NCBI GenBank assembly: GCA_030704795.1
Contig: JAUYCZ010000028.1
Coordinates: 83,202 to 147,201 of the forward strand
Source: a bacterium
Lineage (GTDB): Bacteria; Patescibacteriota; Minisyncoccia; Minisyncoccales; GWA2-46-15
DNA length: 64,000 bases
Reading direction: 5' to 3'
Shown here: positions 26,170 to 64,000 of the stretch, piece after piece
How the letters are laid out: each line of letters begins with the position of its first letter
Numbering within the stretch: position 1 is the stretch's first letter
Made by a program: the position numbers and the translations under genes
The notes under the pieces: model-generated
Seen by the model: the letters and a program-made list of their open reading frames with translations, nothing else
Databases searched by the model: none
Told to the model about the DNA's origin: nothing

Positions 26170-26243
26170 CGCGGCCGACCGGGCTCGAACCGGCAACCTC
26201 CGCCGTGACAGGGCGGCGATCTAACCAATTGATCTACGGCCGC
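26170..26243 (-). tRNA. tRNA-Asp (GTC)
   Basis: Cloverleaf folded by hand: acceptor GCGGCCG/CGGCCGC, D-arm GATC-AATTGGTTA-GATC, anticodon loop CTGTCAC, T-arm GCCGG-TTCGAGC-CCGGT. CCA is not encoded. Confidence 0.9.
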
Positions 26244-26258
26244 ATATTTTAGCAGGGA

Positions 26259-26334
26259 TGGTACCGGGGGCGAGGATCGAACTCGCGACACCAGGCTTAT
26301 GAGTCCTGTGCTCTACCAACTGAGCTACCCCGGC
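26259..26334 (-). tRNA. tRNA-Met or tRNA-Ile2 (CAT), CCA encoded
   Basis: Cloverleaf: GCCGGGG/CCCCGGT (G1:U72), D-arm GCTC-AGTTGGTA-GAGC, anticodon loop CTCATAA, T-arm GCGAG-TTCGATC-CTCGC, A73-CCA. There is an A31:G39 mismatch. Confidence 0.85.
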
Positions 26335-26392
26335 GCGTCGATGGCGCTAGCACTGAGCGAGTGGTGAGTTTATCGAACCACGAGTCGAAGTG

Positions 26393-26463
26393 TTGCGGGG
26401 GCCGGAATTGCACCGGCGTCCCAAGGTTATGAGCCTCGTGAGGTACTACTCCTCCACCCCGCG
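26393..26463 (-). tRNA. initiator-like tRNA (CAT) with non-canonical D and T loops
   Basis: The acceptor CGCGGGG...CCCCGCA-A gives the C1:A72 mismatch and A73 of bacterial tRNA-fMet, and the anticodon loop is CTCATAA. The D loop AGTAGTA lacks GG and the T loop is TGCAATT instead of TTCRANY. The 5' 37 nt overlap the GIY-YIG ORF. Confidence 0.65.
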
Positions 26464-27336: not shown

Positions 27337-27627
27337 ATGACCAAACTAACTACAGAAGAAGTAAAGCACGTGGCCCGGCTGGCCCGCATCGGCTTGACGG
27401 AAAAGGAATTAGAGAAATTCCAAAACCAACTTTCGTCAATTTTAGATTTTGTCGGCCAACTCCAAAAAGTCGACACCGCCAAAACCAAACCGCTGAACCA
27501 GACCACCGGTCTCAAGAACGTCTGGAGAGAAGACCTCGTCACCCCCTCTCTTTCTCAAGAGGAAGCTTTGCAGAACGCTCCAGAAAAATTCAATGGCTAT
27601 TTTAAAACTAAAGCCGCTTTGAAATAA
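27337..27627 (+). CDS. gatC: Asp/Glu-tRNA amidotransferase subunit C
   Basis: VKHVARLARIGLTEKELEKFQNQLSSILDFV. Confidence 0.9.
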   Translation: MTKLTTEEVKHVARLARIGLTEKELEKFQNQLSSILDFVGQLQKVDTAKTKPLNQTTGLKNVWREDLVTPSLSQEEALQNAPEKFNGYFKTKAALK

Positions 27628-29093
27628 TGGAATTATCTGATCTGACCCTGAAAAAAGCGCGGGCCGGTCTGGAAAACAAGGATTTTTCGGCCAAAGAATT
27701 GGTTTCGGCTACCCTGGAAAGAATCCAAAAACTGGATCCAAAAATCTCGGCCTTCCTGACCGTTTGCCCCGAATCAGCCTTAAAACAGGCGGCGGAGACG
27801 GATGAACTGATCGCCCGGAGCCAAAAACTCAAGGCCTTGAGCGGCATCCCTTTTTCAGCCAAAGACGTCTTCTCGACGCAGGGAATTAAAACGACGGCGG
27901 CCTCGAGAATCCTGGAGAACTATATCCCCGTCTATGACGCCACGGCCATTAAAAAACTCCGGGAGGCTGGCGCGATTCTCATCGGCAAAACCAATCACGA
28001 CGCTTTTGGTTTCGGCTCCTCGACAGAAAACTCGGACTTCCAGGTCACTCATAACCCCTGGAACTTAAATAAAGTGCCGGGTGGGTCTTCCGGTGGATCG
28101 GCCGCGGCCGTGGCCAGCGGCATGGGAGTCTTCTCCCTGGCTGAAGACACGGGCGGCTCAATCAGGCAACCGGCTTGTTTTTGCGGCGTCACCGGACTCA
28201 AAGTAACCTATGGCCTGGTTTCGAGATACGGCGTGATCGCTTACGGATCTTCGCTGGATACCATCGGCGTCATCACTCCGTCCGTGGAGGACGCCGCCTT
28301 TCTCCTGGGAATAATTGCCGGCCCGGACCCGCTTGACGCCACGACCATGCCAAACCCGATTCCTGATTATCTTGAATCCCTCAACCAGGGAATAAAGGGC
28401 TTGAGAATCGGCCTTCCCAAAGAGTATTTCATTGAGGGCATTGATCCAGAAGTAAAGCAGTCTTTAGACGAAGCTGTAAAAAAGTTCGAGAAGTTAGGAG
28501 CCAAAACAGAGTCGGTTTCTCTGCCCCACACTCCCGACGCCATTCCGGCTTACTATCTTTCTGGCATCAGCGAAGTCAGCGCCAACCTAGCCCGTTATGA
28601 CGGGGTCAGATTCGGCTATTCTAGTCCAGAAGCCCGAGAACTGGAAGATCTTTATCTCGAATCGCGAGCCAAAGGTTTTGGTCCCGAAGTCAAACGCCGG
28701 ATCATGCTGGGAACCTATGCCTTATCGGCGGGCTATTACGATGCTTTCTATAAGAAAGCGCAGCAAGTTCGCTATCTGATAAAACAAGATTTTGATCGGG
28801 TTTTCCAAAAAGTCGATCTGCTCCTCGCTCCGGTCTCCCCTTTCCCGCCCTTTGGGATCGGCGAAAAAGCCGAAGACCCGTTGCAGATGTGGCTAGCCGA
28901 CATTTTCACTGTCACCATCAACCCGGCCGGGGTGCCAGGCCTGGCCCTGCCCTGCGGCTTTACTAAAAACAATCTGCCCATCGGCCTGCAACTGATCGGT
29001 CCGCAACTCTCTGAAGGCGTTCTCCTGAAAGCCGGCCACGCCTATCAAAGCCAGACCGACTGGCATAAACGGAGACCTTCATTATCAGCATAA
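27627..29093 (+). CDS. gatA: Asp/Glu-tRNA amidotransferase subunit A
   Basis: Amidase signature GGSSGGSAAAVA. Confidence 0.95.
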   Translation: MELSDLTLKKARAGLENKDFSAKELVSATLERIQKLDPKISAFLTVCPESALKQAAETDELIARSQKLKALSGIPFSAKDVFSTQGIKTTAASRILENYIPVYDATAIKKLREAGAILIGKTNHDAFGFGSSTENSDFQVTHNPWNLNKVPGGSSGGSAAAVASGMGVFSLAEDTGGSIRQPACFCGVTGLKVTYGLVSRYGVIAYGSSLDTIGVITPSVEDAAFLLGIIAGPDPLDATTMPNPIPDYLESLNQGIKGLRIGLPKEYFIEGIDPEVKQSLDEAVKKFEKLGAKTESVSLPHTPDAIPAYYLSGISEVSANLARYDGVRFGYSSPEARELEDLYLESRAKGFGPEVKRRIMLGTYALSAGYYDAFYKKAQQVRYLIKQDFDRVFQKVDLLLAPVSPFPPFGIGEKAEDPLQMWLADIFTVTINPAGVPGLALPCGFTKNNLPIGLQLIGPQLSEGVLLKAGHAYQSQTDWHKRRPSLSA

Positions 29094-29108
29094 ATCAGTA
29101 TTAATCAG
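29084..29108. repeat. three direct ATCAG motifs with exact 10-bp phasing (starts 29084, 29094, 29104)
   Basis: Spans the gatA stop and the asnS-like start. The motif context (ATAAATCAG / ATTAATCAG) matches the arrays in the ribosomal operon. Confidence 0.6.
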
Positions 29109-29109
29109 C

Positions 29110-30468
29110 GTGAACACAGAATTCTTAATCAAAGATGCCAAAAATTTCGTAAACCAGAATGTTACCGTCCGGGGCTGGGTTTTTAACAAACGCTCTTCCG
29201 GCTCGATCATCTTCCTGCAGATCCGGGACGGCTCCGGCTTCATCCAAACCACGGTTTCCAAGAAGGATGTGCCAGCCGAAGTCTTCGGCCAAGCCCACGA
29301 AATCACCGACGAATCTTCAATCGTCCTGACTGGCACAATTAAGGCAGAACCAAGGTCTCCCTACGGTTTCGAGATCCAGGCCAAAGATCTGAAGATCATC
29401 TCTCTGGCCCAGGCCGAGTTTCCGATCGCGGCCAAAGAACACGGCATCGATTTTCTCCTTTCCTGGCGCCATTTGTGGCTGAGGTCTCCCCGGCAATGGG
29501 CCATCTTGAGAATCCGCAGCCGGATGATGAACGCCATTAACGATTTTCTGCAAAAAGAAGGTTATTTGCGGATTGATTCCCCGATCTTGACGCCTTCGGC
29601 CTGCGAAGGCACGACGACGCTTTTTCCGGTGCCTTATCTGCCGGCCTGGCCGGATGGTGACAACCAAACCGTGCCTTCCTGGCTCAATCCGGATCAAACC
29701 AAGCCCTACGCCTTTCTTTCTCAGTCGGGTCAGCTCTACCTGGAAGCCGCCATCGCCGCCCACCGAAAGGTCTATGATTTCGGCCCCACTTTCCGGGCCG
29801 AAAAAAGTAAAACCAAAAGGCATCTGACCGAATTCTGGATGATGGACGCGGAAGCCGCCTTCATGGATTTTGAAGAACTGCTCGGATTCGAAGAAAAAAT
29901 GATCTGTCACCTCATCCAAGACGTCCTGGACAATTGCCGGGCAGAACTCCAGGTTTTGGAAAGAGACGTCAAGCCCTTGGAGAAAATACAGCCTCCTTTC
30001 TTGAGGCTGACCTACGAAGAAACGCTAAAGAAACTGAAAGAGTTGGGATCGGACATCCAGGACGGCGAAGACCTGGGCAACGACGATGAGACGACTCTAA
30101 TGACCCACTTTGAAAAACCTCTCTTTATCACCCGCTTCCCCTCGGCCTTCAAGGCTTTTTACTTCAAGAGAGACAAGGAAAAGGAAAATCTGACCCTCTC
30201 CAACGATCTGCTGGCAAGCGAAGGCTATGGCGAGATCGTGGGCGGCGGACAAAGGGAAGACGATTACGAAATCCTCTTAAAAAGATTCAGGGAAGCCGGC
30301 CTGAATGAAAATGATTACGGCTGGTATCTCGACCTGCGGAAATACGGCTCTGTTCCCCATTCTGGCTTTGGCCTGGGATTAGAAAGATTGCTTGCCTGGA
30401 TCTGTAAATTAGAACACATCCGGGAAGCCATCCCCTTCCCTAGAACCATTTATCGCTTCACCCCTTAA
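29110..30468 (+). CDS. asnS: class IIb aminoacyl-tRNA synthetase, AsnRS-like (Asn/Asp specificity not resolved)
   Basis: Has an OB anticodon-binding domain (VTVRGWVFNKRSSGSIIFLQIRDGSG), FRAEKSKTKRHLTEFWMMDAEAAF (the EFWM pattern favours AsnRS) and GFGLGLERL. Confidence 0.8.
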   Translation: MNTEFLIKDAKNFVNQNVTVRGWVFNKRSSGSIIFLQIRDGSGFIQTTVSKKDVPAEVFGQAHEITDESSIVLTGTIKAEPRSPYGFEIQAKDLKIISLAQAEFPIAAKEHGIDFLLSWRHLWLRSPRQWAILRIRSRMMNAINDFLQKEGYLRIDSPILTPSACEGTTTLFPVPYLPAWPDGDNQTVPSWLNPDQTKPYAFLSQSGQLYLEAAIAAHRKVYDFGPTFRAEKSKTKRHLTEFWMMDAEAAFMDFEELLGFEEKMICHLIQDVLDNCRAELQVLERDVKPLEKIQPPFLRLTYEETLKKLKELGSDIQDGEDLGNDDETTLMTHFEKPLFITRFPSAFKAFYFKRDKEKENLTLSNDLLASEGYGEIVGGGQREDDYEILLKRFREAGLNENDYGWYLDLRKYGSVPHSGFGLGLERLLAWICKLEHIREAIPFPRTIYRFTP

Positions 30469-60993: not shown

Positions 60994-61299
60994 TTATATT
61001 TCTTGTTGACACTTTTTACAGACTCTAAATTTCTTTTTCTCCGCCACCCGGTAACCTACTCTGGCCGCTTGGCCGCATTTAGGACAAATGAGTTTAACAT
61101 TAGAAATATCCATCGTCGCCGGCACGGAAACTATCTCGCCCTTCTCGCCCGACTTCTTGGGTTTAACGTGTTTCTTCCTTAAATTAGCGCCCTCGATAAT
61201 AACTCGGGCCTCTTTGGTAAAAACCTGAAGCACCCGGCCCTTTTTGGCCCGGTCCTTACCAGAAATAATTATGACCTGGTCGCCCTTTTTTATTTTCAT
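60994..61299 (-). CDS. rplX: 50S ribosomal protein L24 with C-terminal CxxC..CxxC zinc ribbon
   Basis: KKGDQVIIISGKDRAKKG KOW motif. Confidence 0.9.
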   Translation of the reverse strand: MKIKKGDQVIIISGKDRAKKGRVLQVFTKEARVIIEGANLRKKHVKPKKSGEKGEIVSVPATMDISNVKLICPKCGQAARVGYRVAEKKKFRVCKKCQQEI

Positions 61300-61310
61300 A
61301 CATTTATTAC

Positions 61311-61416
61311 AACGCCAATCAGTATCAATCAGCTTTATCTGTATAAATCAGCGTAAAAACTAATATTCTTTTGACTAACACTGATTTATGCGGATACGAC
61401 TGATTTATGCTGATGA
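61311..61416. repeat. imperfect ~106-bp palindrome: 3x ATCAG (61318, 61328, 61347), loop, then 3x CTGAT (61381, 61400, 61410)
   Basis: Lies in the unusually long 130-nt rplN-rplX spacer. The arms align at about 80 percent as reverse complements, and motif spacing is 10 or 19 bp. Confidence 0.8.
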
Positions 61417-61429
61417 ACTATTTTTTTAC

Positions 61430-61798
61430 TTAAACTACTTCCTCAGCCAGGCTAATTATCTTATCAAAACCCCTTTCCTTGATTTCTCGCGGAATGGGAC
61501 CGAAAACACGACCACCCTTAGGATCCTTGCCTACGTCTAGGACAACGGCCGCGTTCTCGTCAAAGCGGATATAACTGCCGTCGGGCCGACGGAAAGCCTT
61601 TCTCTGCCGGACAATGACCGCCTTAACAATGTCGTGTTTCTTAACCAGCCGCCGGGGATCGGCTTCCTTGACCACGCCCACGATCACATCACCGATCTGG
61701 CCCCATTTTCTCCTTGAGCCACCGCGAACCTGAATACACTCGATGATTTTGGCACCGGAATTATCGGCGATTTTCAAATTGGTTAATAACTGAATCAT
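61430..61798 (-). CDS. rplN: 50S ribosomal protein L14
   Basis: [17 protein letters not shown]. The ATG at 61798 was verified. Confidence 0.95.
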
Positions 61799-61805
61799 TT
61801 TTGCG

Positions 61806-61880
61806 GTACTGATTAATGCTGATTTTAACTGATTAATACAGATTATCAGCATCAATCAGCCGTATCCGTATAAATCAGCG
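61806..61880. repeat. imperfect ~75-bp palindrome: 3x CTGAT (61809, 61819, 61829) then 3x ATCAG (61845, 61855, 61874)
   Basis: Fills the 83-nt rpsQ-rplN spacer. It belongs to the same motif family and contains CCGTATCCGTATAAATCAGC. Confidence 0.8.
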
Positions 61881-61881
61881 G

Positions 61882-62115
61882 TTAGATTTTTTTGATAGCT
61901 CGCCATCTTTTATCTTTACTCATCGGCCTTGTCTCCTCGATCACAACCCTGTCTCCCGTCTTGTACTCGCCTTTCTCGTCATGCGCCTTGTACTTCTTCG
62001 ACACCCGAAATCTTGCCTGGTATTTAGGATAAACTTTCTGCCGCTCCACCTCAACAACGATGGTTTTTTGCATCTTATTAGAAATGACGATTCCGGTTAA
62101 TTGACGTCTAGACAT
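61882..62115 (-). CDS. rpsQ: 30S ribosomal protein S17
   Basis: Contains [14 protein letters not shown] and KYKAHDE. Confidence 0.9.
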
Positions 62116-62317
62116 GTTTTTCTTTCTTTGAGTTCAAAATGGTGCTAACCCGGGCAATGTCTTTCTTCAATTCCTTAACTTCCTGGGTATTCTTCAGTTT
62201 GCCCGAAGCCAAAAGAAATCGCAAAGACCGTAATTTTTCTCTCAACTCTCGCCGGCTGAGACGCAATGTTTCCGGTGATCTTTCGCGCCATTCTTTAATT
62301 TTATGTGACGATTTCAT
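62108..62317 (-). CDS. rpmC: 50S ribosomal protein L29
   Basis: [40 protein letters not shown]. The ATG at 62317 overlaps the rplP stop. Confidence 0.85.
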
Positions 62318-62720
62318 TTTTCTTAATGAATTTAGTTTTGATGGGCAGTTTATCTCCGGCAATCTTGAGGGCTTGACGAGCCGCTTCTTCGGGCAGACCA
62401 TCGATCTCAAAAATGATGCGGCCCGGTCGTATAGGAAAAACATAGTGGCTAACTGCGCCCTTGCCCCCGCCCAGAGGCACCTCGTTGCCTTTGGTCGTCA
62501 CCGGCTTATCCGGAAAAATTCTGATCCACATCTTACCGCCTTTTTTGAAAAAGCGCAAAATTGCTCTTCTCGCCGCTTCCAATTGACGGCTGGTAATCCA
62601 GATCGTGCCTAAGCTCTTTAGTCCAAAAGAGCCAAAATGTAATTCCGTCGCTCTCGACTCAATGCCGTGGGATTTTCCTCTCTGCCATTTACGATGTTTT
62701 ACTTTCTTGGGTAATAACAT
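62301..62720 (-). CDS. rplP: 50S ribosomal protein L16
   Basis: Contains MLLPKKVKHRKWQRG and RMGKGKG-like PLGGGKGAV. Confidence 0.95.
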   Translation of the reverse strand: MLLPKKVKHRKWQRGKSHGIESRATELHFGSFGLKSLGTIWITSRQLEAARRAILRFFKKGGKMWIRIFPDKPVTTKGNEVPLGGGKGAVSHYVFPIRPGRIIFEIDGLPEEAARQALKIAGDKLPIKTKFIKKNEIVT

Positions 62721-62727
62721 TGAAGTT

Positions 62728-62828
62728 AATCCGCATAAATCAGCTCAATCAGCATATATCAGCGCTAAAGAGTTAGAAAATACTAATTAACACTGATTAA
62801 TACGGATACGGCTGATTAATACTGATAA
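62728..62828. repeat. imperfect ~100-bp palindrome: 3x ATCAG (62739, 62748, 62758), loop, then 3x CTGAT (62793, 62812, 62822)
   Basis: Fills the 110-nt rpsC-rplP spacer. Its right arm is about 85 percent identical to the right arm of the 61311-61416 element. Confidence 0.8.
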
Positions 62829-62830
62829 GA

Positions 62831-63493
62831 CTACTCGAACTTGTCACCTTTGTAAAGCCAAACTTTAATCCCAACCGTGCCGTAAGTACAAAAAACGGGG
62901 GTTCCCGCATAGTCAATATCCGCTCTCAAAGTCTGGCGGGGCAGCCGACCTCTTTTTAACCATTCACGTCGAGCAATCTCAGCGCCATCTAAGCGACCAG
63001 CCATCTCAATCCTCGCCCCCTTAATCTCTTTATTCTCCATAACATTATCCAGGGTCTGTTTTAAGACCCTTCTAAAAGGAATTCTCCGGAGGATTTGTTT
63101 AGCCATGGCCTGGCCCACCAGGGAAGCCGAAGTCCAAGGATTACGCACTTCCTGAATTTCAATCCGGATCTCGGCCGTCGGGCCACCACCCCTTCTCTTT
63201 CTGAGAGCGGCCAATTTGTTTTTCAATTCTTTCCTGAGCTCTTCGGCACCCGAGCCTCCCCGACCAATAATTAAACCTGGTCGGGCGCTCTTGACCAGGA
63301 CATTGATTTTGCCAGGAAACCTCTCAATCTTAACGCTATCAACGCCTGCCTCGCTAATTTTCTTAGTTAAAAATTGGCGGATGAAAAAATCTTCCTCGAG
63401 GAGCCGGGGGAAGCGGTGACCGTAAAATCCTTTTGATTCCCAATCGTCAATGCCTTTGATTCTGAAAGCTTTTGGATGAGCCTTGTGAGACAT
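62831..63493 (-). CDS. rpsC: 30S ribosomal protein S3
   Basis: KH domain (GLIIGRGGSGAEELRKEL) and the C-terminal domain. Confidence 0.95.
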   Translation of the reverse strand: MSHKAHPKAFRIKGIDDWESKGFYGHRFPRLLEEDFFIRQFLTKKISEAGVDSVKIERFPGKINVLVKSARPGLIIGRGGSGAEELRKELKNKLAALRKRRGGGPTAEIRIEIQEVRNPWTSASLVGQAMAKQILRRIPFRRVLKQTLDNVMENKEIKGARIEMAGRLDGAEIARREWLKRGRLPRQTLRADIDYAGTPVFCTYGTVGIKVWLYKGDKFE

Positions 63494-63500
63494 GTTTTGA

Positions 63501-63989
63501 CTAGATTGCTTTACGTCTAAAAATCTTTTTAAATCCCGAAGTTGATTTTGGTTTCATTGTCGCGAGCTCGGGCTTAATCTTCTGCTTTTCTGTCTTGGGC
63601 ATGGCCTTGGGCTTGGCCTTTTCAACTAGAGGCACGACCTCGGTCTTCTCTGTCCTCTTGCCCGCTACTGATCTTTTCTTCGACAGCCCTTCTCTTTCCT
63701 GAAGAACAATGGTCAAGTGCGAGGTCTTCTTTTGAATCGGGAAAGCCCGACCGCGAGCTCGCGGTCTCCATCTCTTCAATTTGGGGCCTTCATCAACCAA
63801 AACTTTGGCTAAATAAAGAATTTTCTCATCGAGCTGGAAATTATTTTTGGCATTGGCCAAAGCTGAATCCAAAAGCCTCAAGAAAGGCTTGGCGGCTCTC
63901 CGGGGCAAAAAATTAAGACTGGCCCGGGCTTTCAGGGCATTCTTCCCGCGAATGACATCGGCGACGAGTCTGACTTTTCGCGGCGCCAT
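63501..63989 (-). CDS. rplV: 50S ribosomal protein L22 with Lys-rich C-terminal extension
   Basis: Contains PRKVRLVADVIRGKNALKA and RWRPRARGRAFPIQKKTSHLTIVL. Confidence 0.9.
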   Translation of the reverse strand: MAPRKVRLVADVIRGKNALKARASLNFLPRRAAKPFLRLLDSALANAKNNFQLDEKILYLAKVLVDEGPKLKRWRPRARGRAFPIQKKTSHLTIVLQEREGLSKKRSVAGKRTEKTEVVPLVEKAKPKAMPKTEKQKIKPELATMKPKSTSGFKKIFRRKAI

Positions 63990-64000
63990 TCTTAAATGAT

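Follow-up and report, generated by a model that had tools for sequence, protein, structure and literature searches.

What has filled three spacers of a bacterial ribosomal-protein operon with long palindromic arrays of regularly phased ATCAG/CTGAT motifs? The question is raised by the S10/spc cluster of a member of the Patescibacteriota (GTDB lineage Minisyncoccia; Minisyncoccales; GWA2-46-15), located on a stretch of 64,000 nucleotides (nt) of contig JAUYCZ010000028.1 (positions 83,202 to 147,201; assembly GCA_030704795.1), which we refer to as the window. An earlier note on this DNA had described the arrays and left two readings side by side, i.e., an array of protein-binding sites on the DNA or hairpins in the messenger RNA (mRNA). 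According to our analysis, the three arrays are probably (with a probability of about 0.7) members of a family of interspersed repeats in Patescibacteria, found in Parcubacteria-type lineages including Candidatus (Ca.) Wildermuthbacteria, whose organization resembles that of repetitive extragenic palindromic (REP) elements and their REP-associated tyrosine transposases (RAYT) but with a different enzyme. That the elements are dispersed, mobile-type repeats is close to certain; that their enzyme is a small nuclease of the GxxExxY family, whose gene is bracketed by the same repeats, is a proposal which the arrangement of sequences slightly favors. The family is apparently undescribed, the arm sequence not having been found in the literature searched, and the literature on Patescibacteria/Parcubacteria in connection with REP or with transposable elements of the miniature inverted-repeat type (MITEs) yielded nothing relevant.

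The S10/spc cluster lies on the minus strand of the window, with the gene order rplV, rpsC, rplP, rpmC, rpsQ, rplN, rplX, followed by the genes from rplE to adk. On the gene map the three spacers measure 110 nt (rpsC-rplP), 83 nt (rpsQ-rplN), and 130 nt (rplN-rplX), the same lengths as those reported in the earlier note, and all 18 of the ATCAG/CTGAT start positions that it listed were recovered. The motif is also enriched, WNAATCAGY being found 31 times in the window versus 8.9 expected; the 21-mer consensus previously proposed has 4 matches versus 0.01 expected, and a 15-nt unit, ATCNGYATHAATCAG, has 14 matches versus 0.15 expected, all of them in the three spacers and at one site at 29084-29110. 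The features are the following.

63501-63989, minus strand: rplV
62831-63493, minus strand: rpsC
62721..62830, unstranded: element 3, the entire rpsC-rplP spacer, 110 nt
62791..62826, minus strand: reverse arm of element 3, 36 nt (nhmmer E 5.3e-09)
62765..62790, unstranded: loop of element 3, 26 nt
62729..62764, plus strand: forward arm of element 3, 36 nt (nhmmer E 1.6e-08)
62301-62720, minus strand: rplP
61882-62115, minus strand: rpsQ
61799..61881, unstranded: element 2, the entire rpsQ-rplN spacer, 83 nt
61845..61880, plus strand: forward arm of element 2, 36 nt, set head to head with the reverse one across a 1-nt gap (nhmmer E 1.8e-10)
61809..61843, minus strand: reverse arm of element 2, a variant with pentamer spacing 10-10-10 (nhmmer E 2.4e-04)
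61430-61798, minus strand: rplN
61300..61429, unstranded: element 1, the entire rplN-rplX spacer, 130 nt
61379..61414, minus strand: reverse arm of element 1, 36 nt, the minus strand reading ATCAGCATAAATCAGTCGTATCCGCATAAATCAGTG (nhmmer E 1.7e-10)
61354..61378, unstranded: loop of element 1, 25 nt
61318..61353, plus strand: forward arm of element 1, 36 nt, ATCAGTATCAATCAGCTTTATCTGTATAAATCAGCG (nhmmer arm profile E 2e-09)
60994-61299, minus strand: rplX
29084..29110, plus strand: solo short arm with three pentamers, ATCAGCATAAATCAGTATTAATCAGCG, outside the operon (nhmmer E 1e-03)

The building block of these elements is a 36-nt module with sharp edges, the arm, in which four ATC[A/C]G pentamers follow one another at 10-9-10 nt and are closed by a terminal YG; the logo of 102 non-redundant arms reads ATC[A/C]G-Y-ATA-AATCAG-Y-nnA-ATC[A/C]G-Y-ATA-AATCAG-Y-G. 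Among the positions left free by the search pattern, 6, 16, 25, and 35 are always occupied by a pyrimidine and 36 is G in 96% of the arms; only positions 17-19 vary freely, and the flanks are merely A/T-rich. The motif positions of the anatomy proposed earlier stand, but the supposed CGTATCCG insert in the 19-nt gaps is in fact a fourth, variant pentamer (ATCCG or ATCTG). The likeness between the right arms of elements 1 and 3, previously given as about 85% over ~32 nt, holds with somewhat different figures (87% identity over 39 nt). Elements 1 and 3 consist of a forward arm, a loop of 25-26 nt, and a reverse arm, the 36-nt arms of these two elements being 78% complementary, and element 2 consists of a reverse arm followed by a forward one. 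Forward-reverse loop lengths cluster at 17-18 and 24-26 nt, and the sequence of the loop of element 1 is not conserved across elements.

The arm profile detects seven arms in the window, six in the operon and a solo one. The latter contains the TAA stop of the open reading frame (ORF) 27627-29093 (488 amino acids) and terminates in the GTG start codon of ORF 29110-30468; at this site the repeat supplies gene boundary signals. An eighth arm of the same genome lies beside rpmG, approximately 4.5 kb beyond the start of the window (L224). Overall, the module occurs solo, in inverted pairs of both topologies, and in tandem.

The comparison of the same operon in other genomes reveals insertion polymorphism. 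In the close relative Ca. Wildermuthbacteria GWA2_46_15 (L213, GCA_001823105.1), whose S3 and L5 proteins fall into the same 90%-identity protein clusters as those of the window, rplN and rplX are separated by 1 nt (...gtttgagATGaaaatc, with no spacer), the rpsC-rplP and rpsQ-rplN spacers are 40 and 68 nt long and of unrelated sequence, and no arm was detected across 20 kb. The unit is also absent from 80 of the 80 reference-genome operons among the matches listed in a scan with L14, all of them distant (66-69% identity). Arms are present in nine metagenome contigs with a recognisable S10/spc operon, where they occupy other spacers (L16-L29, S19-L2, S10-L3, and SecY-Adk). The earlier note had set against its own idea the combination of compact spacers in relatives with neutral-like, unphased insertions; half of this was borne out, compact spacers being indeed present in relatives, but the phasing belongs to the element itself. 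A separate observation concerns two near-identical contigs of the GWA2_46_15 type, one of which has an extra 52 nt inserted between rplP and rpmC (L213 11130-11164 versus L212 11100-11140); this insertion holds a different small hairpin, gtcaattcgttccgaattgac, and looks like a second kind of insertion-polymorphic palindrome in the operon.

Outside this operon the repeat is widely dispersed. An exact scan found the two-unit arm in at least 120 metagenome contigs of the Joint Genome Institute (JGI), from groundwater and sediment samples and with a guanine-plus-cytosine (GC) content of 29-52%. A phage origin was considered and rejected, none of 2.9 million viral contigs having a match. In a sample of 111 non-redundant arms, biased by the strict pattern with which it was collected, an inverted partner is present within 110 nt for 34, and the other 77 are solo, 35 of the latter being embedded in long reading frames that stay open in frame 1 of the arm and 42 being apparently non-coding. 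Frame 1 of the forward strand is the only stop-free frame of the consensus arm (ATC AGC ATA AAT CAG ..., corresponding to I S I N Q x N Q H K S A), and the reverse arm, as read from its sequence, has stops in all three frames. As many as 41 distinct host reading frames contain the 12-residue insert ISINQxNQHKSA in frame, including those of MurE, MurD, LeuRS, LigA (just ahead of the KxDG motif), TatD, DegT-type aminotransferases, and an epimerase. Enolase (L094) and PpsA (L192) each have in frame a variant pair, reverse plus forward, which is 72 nt long versus the 36 nt of the usual coding copies. Further arms were located within ribosomal RNA (rRNA) genes, i.e., a 16S rRNA gene (L169) and the 5' domain of a 23S rRNA gene (L197). 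The former gene, in which the arms are at about 1089 and at 1696-1790, is in addition split by two group I introns (L169 987-4517; Rfam RF00028, 64.5 and 57.6 bits).

No gene of the window is orthologous to any of the insert-bearing host genes, and MurE orthologues were used for a survey of empty sites. A protein search with one MurE host yielded 120 orthologues (62-73% identity), some of them from named Ca. Nealsonbacteria and Ca. Portnoybacteria. The insertion site is empty in 41 of them (…GAG-GKAKKILDRREAI…) and carries an intact insert in 11, the others being variant or decayed (e.g., ISVNQRRNQRESA, IRVNPRRYPRKSA, and ISIDQFTPTPNFGVGASQHKSA); some of the variants resemble other arm subfamilies and not random decay. 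Empty, intact, and variant states are intermingled in the neighbor-joining tree, which argues that the individual copies are dispensable, as expected of mobile DNA.

If the modules are mobile, which enzyme might act on them? In many contigs a reverse and a forward arm lie 420-520 nt apart, with a reading frame of 125-140 amino acids between them. A 134-residue protein encoded next to the arms matches PF13366 PDDEXK_3 (E 1e-30, 106.9 bits versus a cut-off of 22) and TIGR04256 GxxExxY (E 4.5e-31, 107.6 bits versus a cut-off of 35), a family occurring in bacteria, archaea, and viruses. All the homologues sharing at least 65% identity with it (19-20 of 120 contigs, among the matches listed) have an arm within 49 nt, usually within 10 nt. 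The nuclease coding sequence finishes with the forward arm (…IKRFIHTK-NQHKSA), and one or more arms, mostly reverse, immediately precede its start codon. An independent test gave the same picture: in six out of six homologues, taken from a protein search for long contigs that was blind to the DNA pattern (Ca. Wildermuthbacteria MBI2123911.1 among them), the order is reverse arm(s), gene, forward arm. The six share a conserved neighborhood (sigma-70, DUF5667, a large protein of ~1,100-1,400 amino acids, and Wzy_C/TPR), so that the nuclease gene looks vertically inherited and not itself mobile.

As far as the protein is concerned, residues P73, D74, E84, and K86 are invariant in 35 sequences, and its AlphaFold model is confident (predicted local distance difference test score, pLDDT, 89.7). 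The nearest solved folds found by Foldseek are Cas4, an alkaline exonuclease (lambda-exonuclease-like), and the Hjc resolvase, all of them weak matches (E 3.5e-3 to 1.4e-2); a sequence search of the PDB retrieved no related solved structure (T7 endonuclease I, E 0.65). A survey of the PD-(D/E)XK superfamily published in 2012 listed PF13366 as being of unknown function, and the literature searched on the GxxExxY protein family held no link to repeats.

Some additional arrangements were noticed around these genes. Beside a GxxExxY gene, whole arms plus linker are repeated in tandem with a 53-nt period, in at least three copies (L189 26-190; L113 816-960 and 1373-1500). In another contig (L227 10402-12888), at least five more forward arms lie inside the Wzy_C/TPR gene directly downstream of the GxxExxY gene, a pile-up that suggests local spreading or a hot spot. 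Near a further GxxExxY gene, a gene of family PF05635 (23S_rRNA_IVP, a four-helix bundle) is itself located between inverted AATTTCCAATTT-type repeats (L206 12977-13345) and represents a second orphan small-gene family with the gene-between-inverted-repeats layout.

Four divergent groups of paralogues of the nuclease each have flanking repeats of their own, on a ~19-nt period or with ATCAG phasing. In the clade sharing 42% identity (L114, L202), the flanking 36-nt arms are of the ATCAGCGGnnATCAG type, with the same pentamers and phasing and a GC-rich linker; the paralogue with 38% identity (L093) is flanked by inverted ACACTAAATACCGCGAA, and the one with 33% identity (L120) by a perfect 14-nt inverted repeat together with ATGCCAAT repeats on a 19-nt period. 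This matching of protein clade and flanking repeat is the strongest argument that the nuclease may recognize the repeats.

A comparable layout was observed in other phyla, in GxxExxY genes on plasmid or chromid records (L217-L223), including Persicobacter, a small sample that was partly judged by eye. The flanks carry inverted ACACGGATTCG / CGAATCCGTG in Treponema, direct repeats …ATCCGTGTACCTAT in Fusobacteria, and inverted repeats built on CACAGAGGA in Bacteroides; in Prevotella there are phased AAATC arrays, and in Gemmatirosa an adjacent downstream palindrome with three CGGAT/ATCCG pentamers 9 nt apart. The Sphingomonas gene, flanked by TTCACGCGAAG / CTTCGCGTGAA, lies between fabD and fabG, and a position between housekeeping genes (as also after radA) recurs in these phyla. 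Most of these genes have inverted or direct repeats of their own on their flanks, and several of the repeats share an ATC[AC]G[CT]G-like core. A crude, position-controlled test of the flanks was significant at four of eight loci, its fixed windows having missed repeats visible by eye. Even though the sample is limited and partly judged by eye, these flanks suggest that the gene-plus-cognate-repeat layout may be general across phyla. We can only tentatively propose, as an idea for which the odds are slightly less than even, that GxxExxY proteins (PF13366/TIGR04256) might be repeat-associated nucleases, the PD-(D/E)XK counterpart of the RAYT/REP pair, each clade reading its own phased flanking repeat, and that the Patescibacteria pair might have seeded modules genome-wide.

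On the basis of these data, the following scenario can be depicted. The 36-nt module would be the recognition site of the small PD-(D/E)XK GxxExxY (PF13366) nuclease, which might bind the phased pentamers and nick or cut there, promoting the copying of the module to new sites; the protein would spread or maintain the modules in trans, as is thought for RAYT with REP and REPIN (REP doublets forming hairpins). Selection would then leave only harmless copies, i.e., those in intercistronic spacers, those in the lone stop-free coding frame (which add 12 residues), and those in rRNA genes. Three copies would have landed in the S10/spc spacers of this genome, where they would be co-transcribed as hairpins with predicted energies of -27 to -38 kcal/mol. 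Such hairpins would be a side effect and not the reason why the elements exist, although they may alter the processing or the stability of the mRNA; REP elements in enterobacterial operons are known to alter mRNA decay or processing.

Several points weigh against this scenario. The apparent conservation of the arm is partly an ascertainment effect, the sample having been picked with a strict pattern. The other points concern the role of the nuclease and would also be accounted for if the modules had spread by another route (a transposase, recombination, gene conversion, or replication slippage), the GxxExxY gene being just a landing site or a passenger. The order in the gene unit is reverse arm, gene, forward arm, inside-out with respect to the forward-loop-reverse palindromes, and the latter are not simple deletion derivatives of it because the arm orientations are opposite. 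In the comparison with the empty spacers of GWA2_46_15, the spacer is replaced over its entire length and no target-site duplication is visible. Synteny of the gene is shared by the six genomes, it is not obviously mobile, and the arms could be beside it for another reason; the pile-up of arms in the neighboring Wzy_C/TPR gene suggests local hot spots. Lastly, there is no GxxExxY gene in the 64-kb window, and none of nine NCBI homologues checked by accession comes from the metagenome-assembled genome to which the window belongs. However, this alternative leaves unexplained that arms and gene are associated in every case examined, among the matches listed as well as in the independent homologues, that the forward arm forms the end of the nuclease coding sequence, that divergent paralogues have different, matching repeats, and that the catalytic residues are invariant. 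We consequently regard spreading by another route as unlikely, even if it is the most serious of the alternatives.

A second possibility is that the arms represent a genomic signal selected by the host, such as a competence-related DNA-uptake sequence or the sites of a chromosome-organising protein. Such a signal would fit the near identity of the arm across contigs of widely different GC content and the coexistence of coding copies, non-coding copies, and inverted pairs, as in uptake sequences; the variant arms found at the same MurE site in different lineages could also be taken to mean homogenisation within a genome. Nevertheless, a close relative does without arms over 20 kb, and the many empty or decayed MurE sites imply dispensable copies. 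A 36-nt module made up of four parts is moreover far more complex than the uptake sequences of Neisseria (DNA uptake sequence, DUS) and Haemophilus (uptake signal sequence, USS), which are 9-12 nt long, and a host signal provides no explanation for the arms that bracket the nuclease gene. We therefore consider it improbable.

A remaining question concerns the level, DNA or RNA, at which the arrays might be read. When folded as RNA, elements 1-3 have predicted energies of -33.1, -26.8, and -37.9 kcal/mol, with z from -3.8 to -5.5 versus shuffled sequences. However, the comparison of 12 clean inverted pairs gave 27.5 of 36 positions shared between partners, versus 30.2 for random arms and 30.7 for non-partner arms on the same contig; being less alike than random arms, partners do not appear to be selected for pairing beyond the shared consensus. 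No hairpin is possible for the solo coding arms. Variant families differ in their linkers and preserve the pentamer core as well as the 10-9-10 spacing, a pattern that would fit several protomers reading one face of the duplex. At the gathering score Rfam recognizes only three transfer RNAs (tRNAs) in the whole window, and at E <= 10 it gives, for 61200-62900, only chance-level matches to microRNA models and no ribosomal-protein leader; a scan for promoters and terminators returned counts no higher than in shuffled sequence, with no terminator and no T tail at the elements. Both of the readings left open by the earlier note are thus partly retained. The protein-binding array gains indirect support, in that the phased pentamers may well be recognition sites (the core and the spacing are kept, the arms have no extra complementarity, and the modules flank a nuclease gene), but not as an operator of the operon; among the hairpin options, the MITE-like one comes closest to the evidence, the elements being dispersed and insertion-polymorphic, and processing sites or attenuators as a feature of the operon do not. 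A regulation in cis specific to this operon, with the arrays acting as operators or iterons for a regulator of ribosomal proteins or as selected mRNA hairpins (RNase III sites, attenuators, or stabilisers) that set the rpsC-rplX stoichiometry, would account for the position of all three elements within 1.5 kb of one operon, for predicted hairpins stronger than in the shuffled controls, and for the ~9 of 111 non-redundant metagenome arm sites that fall in S10/spc versus the ~2% of the genome occupied by the cluster, but it is very improbable, and a reading of the arrays as a feature of the ribosomal-protein operon itself is not supported, given that the same spacers of a relative with at least 90% protein identity and the 80 other operons among the matches listed are devoid of them, that other carriers have their arms in different spacers, that the operon holds only a minority of the copies, many of the others being hairpin-less solo arms in coding sequence, and that there is no Rfam match, no T tail, no excess of promoter-like sites, and no extra complementarity of partner arms.

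We then return to the interpretation of the arrays as copies of a dispersed repeat and consider its likeness to known systems. The closest functional analogue is represented by the partnership of REP/REPIN repeats with RAYT transposases (Nunvar 2010; Bertels & Rainey 2011, PMC3116915). In both cases there are short interspersed repeats, with inverted doublets that can fold into hairpins, as well as clusters and tandem arrays; the cognate repeats bracket a small, apparently single-copy gene that seems to be vertically inherited, each paralogue goes with repeats of its own, and some copies lie between genes within operons. The differences are also substantial. RAYT is an HUH/Y1, IS200-like transposase, whereas the candidate enzyme described here has a PD-(D/E)XK fold (PF13366/TIGR04256). 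A REP is an imperfect palindrome of 20-40 nt, whereas the arm is made up of four direct pentamers, is not self-complementary, and requires a second arm for palindromy. In REP superfamilies one end bears the tetranucleotide GTAG or CGTC as a tag (Di Nocera 2013, PMC3733652); no such tag is present in the arms, which start with ATCAG and end with YG. Unlike the extragenic REPs, moreover, the arms include the 41 distinct in-frame coding copies as well as those in rRNA genes.

The in-frame insertion of a selfish-looking repeat into unrelated housekeeping genes, with the addition of a conserved peptide, is shared with the Rickettsia palindromic elements (RPEs; Ogata 2000, as reviewed in PMC10969869). 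Both hosts are bacteria with small genomes, and in both of them copies are also present in non-coding DNA and in RNA genes. However, RPEs are whole palindromes of ~100-150 bp, whereas the coding copies described here are mostly single 36-nt arms, in a different host lineage; RPEs are not known to be related in sequence to the arms, and no enzyme is known to be linked to them.

With MITEs the elements have in common that they are non-coding, 83-130 nt long, delimited by terminal inverted arms, and insertion-polymorphic between close relatives. There is, however, no target-site duplication, solo, head-to-head, and tandem arrangements of the arms exist as well, and the gene-bearing unit has its arms in the opposite orientation, hence no matching parent element; of the defining characters of MITEs, only the inverted arms are present. 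Direct repeats about one helical turn apart, in two inverted sets, are shared with plasmid iterons and with type II partition sites such as parC of plasmid R1, whose phased direct repeats are bound by one protein. Unlike those sites, the arms are dispersed over the chromosome and inside genes, at positions that are not conserved, with no tie to a replication or partition gene. The small dispersed repeats of cyanobacteria (Elhai 2008) are reportedly mobile repeats of ~21-27 nt that insert into genes and into other repeats, and to our knowledge no enzyme is associated with them; they differ from the arms in sequence, architecture, and host, and a candidate enzyme is physically linked to the repeat only in the present case. 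Lastly, tandem interspersed guide RNA (TIGR) arrays were considered for their 36-nt unit and their link with Parcubacteria, where they have also been found (PMC12045711). These arrays consist of tandem 36-nt units with edge and loop repeats and two variable spacers of 8-9 nt, next to a Tas gene with a Nop domain (Faure 2025, PMC12045711), and were discarded, there being no variable spacers, no array, and no Tas gene here, and the neighboring gene belonging to PF13366.

If the above interpretation is correct, an odd feature of a core operon finds its explanation in mobile DNA and not in regulation, which should guard against over-reading similar spacers in candidate phyla. Patescibacteria have genomes of ~1 Mb and are thought to be highly streamlined; a repeat settled in essential genes, rRNA genes, and ribosomal-protein operons, across lineages with a GC content of 29-52%, represents for them an unexpected load, and it is also a likely cause of the fragmentation of their assemblies. 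As for the large orphan family GxxExxY, the association would offer a first concrete lead on its function, with a defined 36-bp candidate substrate, and, if the protein really recognizes phased pentamers and moves or copies 36-nt modules, this would amount to a novel mechanism for mobile DNA of very small size.

Some minor observations concern the remainder of the operon and of the window. The spacer between rpsJ and rplC, in the continuation of the operon past window position 64000 (L001 1328-1520), is ~190 nt long and carries no arm; it holds two other short hairpins, cggacgtgcgatgtccg and aatcgggctatgcccgatt, and it might be a different structured or leader element. The rplV product (window 63501-63989) consists of 162 amino acids and has a long lysine-rich C-terminal extension outside the usual L22 fold. 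The three tRNA genes recognized by Rfam (53-67 bits) are clustered on the minus strand at window positions 26170-26463.

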